Of a stretch of DNA of 22,731 nt, positions 9,001 through 12,000 are shown piece by piece. Made by a program: the position numbers. Position 1 is the first letter of the stretch; every line of letters starts with the position of its first letter. This DNA is from a virus (lineage: Duplodnaviria > Heunggongvirae > Uroviricota > Caudoviricetes), in the IMG/VR virus record IMGVR_UViG_2526164602_000021, one strand, 5' to 3'.

Positions 9001-12000
9001 GGTCAGTCGCATGGCAGCCCCCTTCATCCGGGTTAATGCCTCGCCCGGGATCAGTTCACCGTCCTCACGAATCACCTTATCCCGGCTGCCCTGAATGTAG
9101 GCCAGCAGCACGGCGGTAGCCTGACGAACCTTGTCCATCAGCATGTCATCATCCGCGTCATGGTCGACACGCAGATGTGCCTTGATCTCTTCCAGTGTCA
9201 GTAATGCCGTCATTTTCCGCCTCCTGCATCCCGTCCACGTTTGGCAGCCAGGGTCCAGCCTGATGAATGAGCTTCTCCGGGTTTATCACCGGTCATACTG
9301 TTGCAGTGCCACAGCGAGCCCCCCCACGTCACCGTATCACCGGGGTGGTAGGTTTCACCGGCTCTGAACACACCGCGGTAGAGCATCACCGGCAGGGAAA
9401 ATGTTTTTTCCGTACGCTGGCCACTGCTCTGCCGGACCACCACAGTGAACGACCGTTCGCCGGTCATGCTGACGTCAATATCGGCCACCCCGTCAACCAG
9501 GCATTCCCATCCCCGCATCCCGTGCGTTTTTTCATACGCCCGCCAGAGTCCGCCCTGGTGTGTGGCATACGTGCCCCGGGGAAAGGATTTTTGATCGTCA
9601 ATGGCGGGGATTATTTCCAGTGCCGTGGCATCACGCCCGTCCTGCGGAGCCGGCATCGGGATCATAGTCACGACCATCACGCGGAACAGGAATATGGCTT
9701 ACCGCCTCTTTCACCATCTGTTCAAGCATCGGACGCACATCATCGGGGGTAATACTTTTGCCGTCCGCCGGTACCGGAATATTCGCAACCGCATCATTCA
9801 CCGCCTGCTTCAGTACTTCCGGATCATAATCACGACCGTCACGCGGAGCAGGGATATGGCTTACAGCCTCTTTCACCATCTGCTCAAGCATCGGACGCAC
9901 ATCATCGGGGGTGATACTTTTGCCGTCCGCCGGTACCGGAATATTCGCAACCGCATCATTCACCGCCTGCTGCAGTACATCCGGATCATAATCACGACCA
10001 TCACGCGGTACCGGAATGGTCCCCACAGCGTCATCCACCATCGCCTGCAGAACCGGATGTACCTCATCCACCGTCACATGCTTCTGTAATACCGCCGACA
10101 GGGAAGCCAGTTTCTCTTCAAACGCTTGTGCCTGCGCGGCCATCTTCCCCTCAAATGTGCGCTGTAAATCCGCCAGCACCGTGGAGAATTCTTCGCCCAG
10201 TGCACGAATAATGGACAGTTCCCGTTCCGTCATTTTCTCAGTATCCCCCTGAACATCGCTTTCACTGCATCATGCTCTGTTTCACTGATTGCCTTATTAC
10301 CGTCAGATGCGCCGTCAGGCAGTTGTGCTGAAACTGTTTTCCCGGCCGACGCGAACGGGTCCTCACGGGCATCACGACGGGACAGCGCCTCCAGACTGTA
10401 GTTCTGCTGCTGAAGATACAGTGCATCACCGCCGGCAAGGGGCGGCAGGTTCTCACGTTTACGGGCCTCATTGGGCGTGAGAAGCGTATTTTTCACCGAT
10501 TCACCCAGTGTTTTCATGCGCCGTTCGCTGTCCATTCTCAGCAGCGTGGTGACGTCAAACTCCGTGCTCTCGTTTTCCCCCGTTTCCAGCGCCTCATCCA
10601 GTAACAGCTCAATGGACTCAATCAGCGTCTGCAGACACTGGGAATAATACTGCTGCTCCAGCGCCTCCACGTTGTCACTGGAAGGCGGGTGGCCAACGCC
10701 AATCTTGTAGGCCGGGACACGGAACACCGAACAGACAATTTCAGCCGTCATTTTCAGTTGTTCCACCGTCTGCGCATCCACCGGTGAAAACGTCGTGGGG
10801 CTGTATTTTGCCCCGTTGCTCAGTATGGCCGTCTTCCCGGCATTTTCGCCCGTATATCCGCTGTCCCAGTTCCCCTTCAGTTTTTTCGCGTTTTCTTCCG
10901 TAATACTGCCGGGGACCTCAATCACGCCTGATGGTCGCCCGCCATTTCTGAAAAAATACGTCGAATTTGCCTGAATATGATGCCCCTGCATGGCGGCCAG
11001 TCCTGCGGCATACACCGGCGGCAGCCCCACAAGCGGATGAAAAAAACAGTTAAAACGGTCGTGGATCACCTCCCGGGCAGGCACCGTCACCGACTCTGTG
11101 ATCCCACAGTTCCGGTCCGGCGTGATGCGGTAGAACACCTCGCCGTCATCCGCCACCAGAGGTTCAACCCGGTTCCAGTCCAGAATACGCAGTTCTTTGA
11201 TCTGCCCCCGGGGGGTGCGGATTTTCAGCACCACCGTATTGCCGTGACGCAATTTGGAATTCAGCCACAGTTCAAAAAACTGGATGCGATTCTGCTGCGC
11301 ATTAGGACGACGACAGAGACGGGCAGTATCTCCCTGCCGCTTTTCCCGGCGTATTCCCTGTACATCAGTCTGCATCAGGCGAAGCCGCATTTTGGCAATA
11401 TCCTGGGATATCAGCGAAATGCATGAAAACACCGCGTGAAAGGACAAAACGGTTTCCGGATCGGCTTTCACCCCCTGCTGCCAGGCACCGGCAAAAGGCT
11501 CAGCCACCGCCTGAAACAGGGACCGCCAGCCCACTTCTCTTACGTCACGTCCTGATTTCTGGTTTTTTCGGGTTCGCCGCAAAAGGTTCCACATTCGCCA
11601 TGCTCCGCATCACGTTTCTTTTTCTGACCTGCCGGACGTCGCGCTGTGATGTACTCCGCCTTCCCCAGGCGAACCAGCACCTCCGCACACGGCTGTGCCA
11701 CATCACGGATATCCCCGGCCCGGGCATCATGCGTGCCCTGCAGATACTGGATTTTTGCCATCTGTTACTGCGGGAAGCTCGCGCCTCCCGCCCTCCTCAT
11801 CAGACTCAGCCGCCGGACGCACTGCCGTAGTTCACTCCGGTGATCACCGCCACCGCCGCGGTACGGCGACGACGCCAGTTGATCCAGCGCTCCGCACGGA
11901 TGGCCACGCTGCCTGTCTGGAACATGGAAACCAGCTCCACCGGGGACGGCGTGGTACTGTCGCCGGTCGGCTCAGACTGCATTTCCAGTGATGCTTCACG

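Follow-up and report, generated by a model that had tools for sequence, protein, structure and literature searches.

Here we analysed a 22,731-nt stretch of DNA from the tailed-phage record IMGVR_UViG_2526164602_000021 (hereafter, the window), and found that two overlapping open reading frames (ORFs) at 9210..10233 on the minus strand, between genes for a portal protein and a head-tail connector, are very probably the two parts of a single gene, here called X, which belongs to a large phage head-module family and was inactivated in this copy by a 38-bp deletion. An earlier, sequence-only reading of this DNA had proposed at this place one modular protein of variable length, either frameshifted or made by recoding. 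The extent that it gave was right, although plus-strand numbers had been used for a minus-strand gene; of its two explanations, the frameshift held and recoding did not. Since the relatives carry X as one ORF and the junction created by the deletion is absent from the complete Escherichia coli genomes, we interpret the split as a private frameshifting deletion that turned X into a pseudogene.

The window region is ~98-99% identical to lambdoid prophages of Shiga toxin-producing E. coli (STEC; O111, O26, O103, O157), whose genomes hold up to ~29 near-identical copies of it. Strain SD134209 (L001) has a single 353-aa ORF over this stretch, and strain CAU16175 (L002) one of 299 aa, which is exactly one 162-bp repeat unit fewer. 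A three-way alignment with these two copies (A1, columns 646-683) revealed that the window misses 38 bp (TGTTCTGCAGAAGGCTGTTCTGGATGCGGTGAGAGCCC) between 9656 and 9655, and that the gap is flanked by a 2-nt TG microhomology, so that its position is ambiguous by 2 nt, to 9653/9654. The deletion takes out the codons for ~VLQKAVLDAVRAL, i.e., ~13 residues of a conserved helix, and because 38 equals 2 modulo 3, the sequence beyond it stands in the +1 frame. Translation from the native ATG (10233) gives 193 native residues, followed by seven out-of-frame residues (AGSAGRA) and a premature stop; this is the 200-aa ORF of the 5' part of X (9631..10233, minus strand), as delimited by alignment to intact relatives. 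The 3' remnant in the native frame (9210..9653, minus strand), to which conservation in alignment A3 and the model of a homologue assign the C-terminal beta-domain (~143 aa) and the native stop, is stranded in an ORF without a start signal of its own. That downstream ORF (156 aa, 9210..9680, minus strand, +1 frame) begins at a GTG at 9680 inside the upstream ORF, which it overlaps by 50 nt (9631..9680), and carries the repeat motif onward as PAPQDGRDA; the GTG has no Shine-Dalgarno sequence, as the sequence-only reading had already seen, and is not a real start. Whichever role intact X has, X is non-functional in the window.

A 44-nt query centred on the junction, which cannot seed on intact alleles, matched none of 5,426 complete E. 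coli genomes; the intact 353-aa protein is recorded, as an exact match, on 438 contigs. Among ~60 related loci from IMG/VR and GenBank, X is truncated in three copies only, the window included. The other two lesions are a Gln-to-stop codon in AIDDQKSF (L068, from 4218) and an out-of-frame rearrangement inside the repeats (L078, from 4379); both are unrelated to the one described here and indicate sporadic decay of X in prophages.

An error of sequencing or assembly, behind which the real gene would be intact, is an improbable source of the 38-bp gap. It has to be conceded to this view that a deletion and an assembly artefact look alike in assembled sequence, that the region exists in so many near-identical copies in STEC genomes, that contigs often break in these repeats and leave many 'partial' proteins, and that the deletion allele is unique to the window. 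On the other hand, the clean loss of 38 bp at a TG microhomology, outside the exact repeat register, is typical of replication slippage, a collapse of the repeats would take away 162 bp rather than 38, and other copies bear independent, real-looking lesions. Programmed +1 ribosomal frameshifting, which would join both ORFs into a full-length protein and for which the overlap of the frames and the continuation of the motif could be adduced, is hardly credible: close and distant orthologues have one continuous ORF, the deletion accounts exactly for the change of frame, the junction is conserved in none of the 5,426 genomes, direct reading of 9631..9680 disclosed no canonical +1 slippery or stop context, Rfam gave no match at E<=0.1 within 8500..11800, and the shifted product would still be short of the ~13 conserved-helix residues. 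Nor, despite each being longer than 150 aa, do the two ORFs have any real prospect of being separately expressed genes, given that the second begins within the first without a ribosome-binding site, that its first nine residues are out-of-frame read-through of repeat sequence, and that the surveyed orthologues, which are single ORFs and not pairs of genes with their own starts, show no split apart from the two sporadic lesions.

The variable length of X resides in a tandem array in which Tandem Repeats Finder (TRF) detects a 162-bp period at 9654..10017 (2.2 copies, 92% matches, score 644), far above chance; in translation the array (9655..10017, minus strand) consists of two full 54-aa units and a partial third. 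Each unit is made of two sub-units, IPxPRDGRDYDP(D/E)VLxQAVNDAVAN (25 aa) and IPVPADGKSITPDDVRPMLEQMVKEAVSH (29 aa), which open with IPxPRDGRDYDP and IPVPADGKSITPDD, respectively, and continue as a helix. In the ~60 related loci, intact X is a single ORF of 245, 299, 353, 405-407, 461 or 569 aa, and these lengths correspond to 1, 2, 3, 4, 5 and 7 DGRDYDP units, i.e., the copy number changes among relatives in exact 162-bp (54-aa) steps. We infer that the array expands and contracts by unequal recombination or slippage. The repeat gene between portal and connector, its IPxPxDGRDYDP-type units and the modular, variable-length product that the sequence-only reading had described were all borne out.

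Intact X comprises a ~50-aa N-terminal helix, one to seven or more acidic 54-aa units, each of them built from two short helices that PxPxDG linkers connect, and a beta-domain of ~140 aa, the last ~50 aa of which take a predicted CBM5/12-like (carbohydrate-binding module) fold. The N-terminal and repeat part is strongly acidic (isoelectric point 4.5, net charge -17), and the C-terminal domain is neutral. An AlphaFold2 run on the near-complete homologue P0110 (403 aa), with an alignment of 130 diverse family members, yielded an N-terminal helix at aa 3-52 (10078..10227, minus strand, in the window) with a predicted local distance difference test score (pLDDT) above 90, a repeat region of 12-17-residue helices split by 12-residue linkers, of low confidence, and a C-terminal beta-domain with pLDDT of 95-98; the window's own C-terminal remnant gives a similar model. 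The best Foldseek matches of the tip are CBM5/12 modules (2rts, 1.6 A over 45 aa; 2d49, 1.9 A over 47 aa), and the modelled fold is the small (~45-60 aa) antiparallel beta-sheet that characterises them. The next matches are phage tail fibres and tailspikes, namely Pa193 gp47 and proteins of the Agrobacterium phages 7-7-1 and Milano, and the nearest predicted viral structures are fibre and tail proteins containing collagen repeats, ChiC_BD or CBM5/12. A sequence search of the PDB returned weak matches to carbohydrate-binding modules and designed helical repeats, and nothing stronger.

The resemblance of the C-terminus to CBM5/12 chitin-binding domains, also part of the sequence-only reading, shows in sequence profiles too, narrowly below the threshold. 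Pfam CBM_5_12 (PF02839) matches the window's C-terminal ORF with E=2.5e-5 and 24.7 bits, and the intact 353-aa homologue, a Salmonella homologue and P0260 with 21.1, 23.1 and 22.6 bits, respectively, all of them under the gathering cut-off of 26.2 bits (E from 2.5e-5 to 3e-4). The module lies at 9240..9368 (minus strand; FRAGETYHPGDTVTWGGSLWHC...GWTLAAK). Four aromatic residues, Y101, W109, W114 and W132 (numbered as in the first sequence of A3), vary hardly or not at all across the family, and the aromatic pattern Y..GD.V.W.G..W...P...W is almost invariant; the tip has this pattern in common with the CBM5/12 modules themselves (Serratia ChiB CBM5 and the chitin-binding domains of Streptomyces ChiC, 2d49, and of Pyrococcus, 2rts). 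It differs from them in its hidden Markov model score just below the cut-off, in sitting within a larger ~140-aa beta-domain specific to this phage family, and in not being joined to any enzyme. Many homologues (P0123, P0124, P0139, P0168 and others) possess short collagen-like Gly-X-Y runs at the C-terminus (e.g., GRDGKDGKDGRD and GRDGRDGLKGEKGERG), with two to three triplets just before the C-terminal domain, which hints at trimerisation; in their place, the window copy shows just a degenerate KRGRDAGGGK.

According to an exhaustive HMMER search, which covered 1.84 billion cluster representatives (50% identity), X belongs to a family of 5,403 representatives at E<=1e-3 (627 at E<=1e-30), with lengths of ~170 to 1,240 aa and 0-18 PxPxxG units; a portal domain is present in only two of the top 150 members. 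We examined 80 loci from one-genome-per-species contigs, spanning Enterobacterales, Pseudomonas, Burkholderiales, Rhizobiales, Sphingomonadales and one Clostridia metagenome-assembled genome. In 69 of the 80, X is a single ORF whose start and the stop of the portal gene before it overlap by 1-19 nt; a gp6-like connector gene usually comes next, and the capsid gene lies farther upstream. The succession of a protease-capsid fusion, a small ORF, portal, X and gp6-like connector is a fixed module across Gamma-, Beta- and Alphaproteobacteria. The window conforms to it: its HK97-type portal gene (454 aa, 10230..11594, minus strand; Pfam Phage_portal, E=3.5e-79) ends in a TGA (10232..10230) that overlaps the start of X, and the resulting ATGA (10230..10233) is a signature of translational coupling, while at the other end the gp6-like connector gene (8887..9213, minus strand; Pfam Phage_connect_1, E=7.8e-8, and the annotation of relatives by the Prokaryotic Genome Annotation Pipeline, PGAP) overlaps the stop of X by 4 nt. 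Few cultured phages carry X: long-tailed Shiga toxin (Stx) phages of the genus Pankowvirus, Salmonella FSL SP-016, Pseudomonas PAJU2 and IME307, a siphovirus from enhanced biological phosphorus removal (EBPR) and a Rhizobium phage. Phage vB_EcoS_phi330 (L167, PV189401.1) was considered as a working-virion test of the arrangement and set aside, as its record looks error-rich: it gives two coding sequences apiece for X, the gp10-like gene and the major tail gene, a pattern that points to indel errors left in the deposited genome and not to biology.

The public names of X are 'phage portal protein', 'gp6-like head-tail connector protein' and 'hypothetical'; the standalone protein bears the portal name in E. 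coli and the connector name in Salmonella. Standalone X matches neither Phage_portal in Pfam nor TIGR01537 in NCBIfam, nor is it homologous to the connector, and only ORFs in which X is fused to the portal match, through their N-terminal 450 aa; the portal name was transferred to it from such fusions. An equivalent source for the Salmonella name, an X-connector fusion, occurs in none of 301 family members, and we regard that name as annotation noise. NCBIfam holds no model for X. The family is already catalogued as PHROG 1289 and 2271, whose labels are 'portal protein' or 'unknown', and as Pfam PF28083, which appears as a precomputed domain on X proteins.

The portal-X fusions are the most interesting by-product of this analysis, as they recur through a one-base polymorphism in a G run. 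In phages 2851 and YYZ-2008, portal and X form one continuous ORF of 859-861 aa (859 aa in 2851), and the fused homologue matches TIGR01537 portal_HK97. The sole difference at the junction between the fused and the two-gene arrangement (L003 and L004 junctions) is a run of six G residues (G6) instead of five (G5), 17 nt before the portal stop; the window has the G5 run, at 10245..10249 (minus strand). Allele-specific queries located G5 at 708 places in 367 complete E. coli genomes and G6 at 1,369 places in 782. For the most part the alleles follow clades (of 61 nearest neighbours, 53 have the same one), and some pairs of sequences are identical over 934 flanking nt and differ in the length of the run alone, which reflects either recurrent change of the run or homopolymer errors in some drafts. 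We take G5 to be the ancestral state because distant relatives have the overlapping two-gene arrangement. A second fusion is independent: in a prophage of Candidatus Pantoea communis (L110, 704..4435) and in protein P0260, portal and X are joined in frame into a product of 1,237-1,243 aa, with a different junction and ~25 copies of a different unit, LPxPEPLPDIxxMVxxAVSxI. The stalk of X can therefore use unrelated repeat types and grow very long.

Even with both ORFs intact, as in G5 alleles, PGAP merges portal and X into one 'frameshifted' portal pseudogene, because 2851 and YYZ-2008 carry portal-X as one ORF. In the RefSeq records these pseudogenes span 1707..4129 of L001 and 1707..3967 of L002, equivalent to 9210..11594 of the window. 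For the G5 allele this label is probably wrong, an error that would affect hundreds of complete genomes.

What, then, might intact X do? The portal coupling, the two independent fusions to the portal C-terminus, the topology of the portal crown and the conservation of the tip lead us to favour a low-copy protein associated with the portal vertex. In 40 distant loci the median identity to the window is 59% for the C-terminal domain of X, 51% for the portal, 50% for the capsid protein and 39% for the connector, and in 30 of the 40 the conservation of the domain equals or exceeds that of the portal. Phages normally vary most in the tips with which they bind receptors; by its sequence, the tip of X would differ from such host-specific tips and resemble a core component of the head whose partner is invariant. 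The C-terminal crown of the portal faces the capsid interior in SPP1, P22, HK97, T4 and phi29. We propose that translational coupling would keep X at a low stoichiometry, roughly that of the portal, and that X would act at the portal vertex, most likely docked on or tethered to the crown. Hence, our tentative and preferred reading, to which we give a little less than an even chance, is that X is tethered to the portal as an internal or ejected protein and corresponds in position to SPP1 gp7 and Mu gpF, with a tip that would bind an invariant ligand such as a phage component, DNA or a peptidoglycan-like glycan of N-acetylglucosamine.

SPP1 gp7 and Mu gpF are portal-bound, internal minor head proteins, encoded directly downstream of the portal gene. 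The X gene likewise follows the portal gene directly (in 69 of 80 loci and in the window), X probably shares their low copy number, and the natural fusions of E. coli G6 alleles and of Pantoea suggest a physical linkage to the portal; a further likeness is that of a variable C-terminal cargo on a conserved head-module scaffold. X differs from them in its architecture of helix, repeats and beta-domain, and no MuF domain was found in it (no Phage_Mu_F match at E<=1 in Pfam, and no match in NCBIfam).

Several observations weigh against a place inside the head and against parts of the evidence used above. External phage tail fibres and collagen-like fibre proteins end in folds of the kind that the tip of X has, which speaks for a place on the outside and for binding of glycans; all CBM_5_12 scores stay below the gathering cut-off; and the pLDDT of the repeat region in the P0110 model is only 45-68. 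Some of the G5/G6 differences could be homopolymer sequencing errors, and clonal sampling of STEC inflates the G6 counts, so that the abundance of G6 is no proof of a functional fusion. Moreover, in the accessible literature on PAJU2, 2851, YYZ-2008 and the virion proteomics of Stx phages we found no experimental work on the X protein, and hence no experiment that places it in the virion.

An external fibre on the capsid or neck, i.e., a decoration protein or whisker that binds glycans of the host or the environment through its CBM5/12-like tip, is an alternative that we consider less likely. Besides the fold of the tip and its closest viral structural neighbours, the collagen-repeat/ChiC_BD fibre and tail proteins and the tail fibres of 7-7-1, Milano and Pa193, it could claim the short collagen-like GXY runs of homologues and the acidic stalk of variable length, as in Hoc-like or fibritin-like fibres. 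The tip, on the contrary, varies less than the portal or the capsid protein among hosts of different orders, the gene is coupled to that of the portal and not of the capsid protein, which suggests a low copy number, the two independent events that fused X in frame to the portal C-terminus would put it inside the capsid, and neither Pfam nor PHROGs revealed Ig-like or known decoration-protein domains (Hoc, pb10 or gpD/Dec type).

Like T4 fibritin-type whiskers and the tail fibres of 7-7-1, Milano and Pa193 (gp47), X has a modular stalk of short helices and linkers whose length varies by whole repeat units, and its tip shares their fold; unlike them, it is encoded in the head module beside the portal and not among tail genes, has no foldon, and ends in a highly conserved rather than hypervariable tip. 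With decoration fibres of the Hoc and pb10 type, X shares an acidic, modular, length-variable and non-enzymatic nature, and it is presumably dispensable too, because truncated copies persist in prophages. In contrast to these, X has no Ig-like domains, its gene is coupled to the portal gene and not to the capsid gene, and a protein fused to the portal C-terminus could not bind at hexamer centres. A capsid-wide decoration role would seem the reading least compatible with the data, as far as sequence can tell. The capsid fibre or decoration role put forward from the sequence alone was not established, and the portal coupling, the portal fusions and the conservation of the tip partly contradict it.

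A more specific form of the portal-tethered reading deserves mention, although we give it little credence: the G5/G6 run may be a functional switch or slippage site that sets how many of the 12 portal subunits carry the C-terminal extension, in which case X would form a new class of internal or ejected proteins held at the portal, the conserved tip of which would bind peptidoglycan or DNA at genome delivery. Such a switch would act by mutation, or by -1/+1 ribosomal slippage on G_GGG beside a rare AUA codon, and the extension would consist of a variable-length tether and the CBM5/12-like domain inside the capsid. In the G5 context, the zero-frame codon following GGG is indeed the rare AUA, and -1 slippage at this run is conceivable from the sequence.

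In this part of the window every gene lies on the minus strand. Upstream (5') of the portal gene, the prohead protease and the major capsid protein are fused into one protein of 645 aa (11806..13743, minus strand; PHROG major head protein and head maturation protease). The usual HK97 order is portal, protease, capsid; the order in the window is reversed relative to it, and the position of the protease-capsid fusion before the portal is also kept in distant loci. Between the capsid gene and the portal gene there is a conserved 73-aa ORF (~11540..11761, minus strand; 1540..1761 in L001), which overlaps the portal start by ~55 nt, is labelled hypothetical in RefSeq and has no Pfam match. Promoter-like and terminator-like sites are no more frequent on either strand than in shuffled sequence. 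Two plus-strand ORFs (9267..9752 and 9601..10089) were rejected as unsupported antisense shadows of the repeat-rich coding strand.

For the window itself the finding means little, as just another case of gene decay in a lambdoid STEC prophage. If G5 is the intact ancestral arrangement, with at least 708 places in 367 complete genomes, then the intactness of STEC prophages is underestimated at this locus. Phages of the 2851-like, long-tailed Stx2c group, whose isolates may carry either allele of the G run, are infectious (PMC12029490), and the natural portal-X fusions offer a direct experimental handle on the position of a fibre-like, CBM-tipped protein at the portal vertex of long-tailed Stx phages. 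More broadly, the X family comprises more than 5,000 diverged and functionally uncharacterised representatives, which occupy a fixed slot between portal and connector in many prophages of Proteobacteria under names borrowed from their neighbours.

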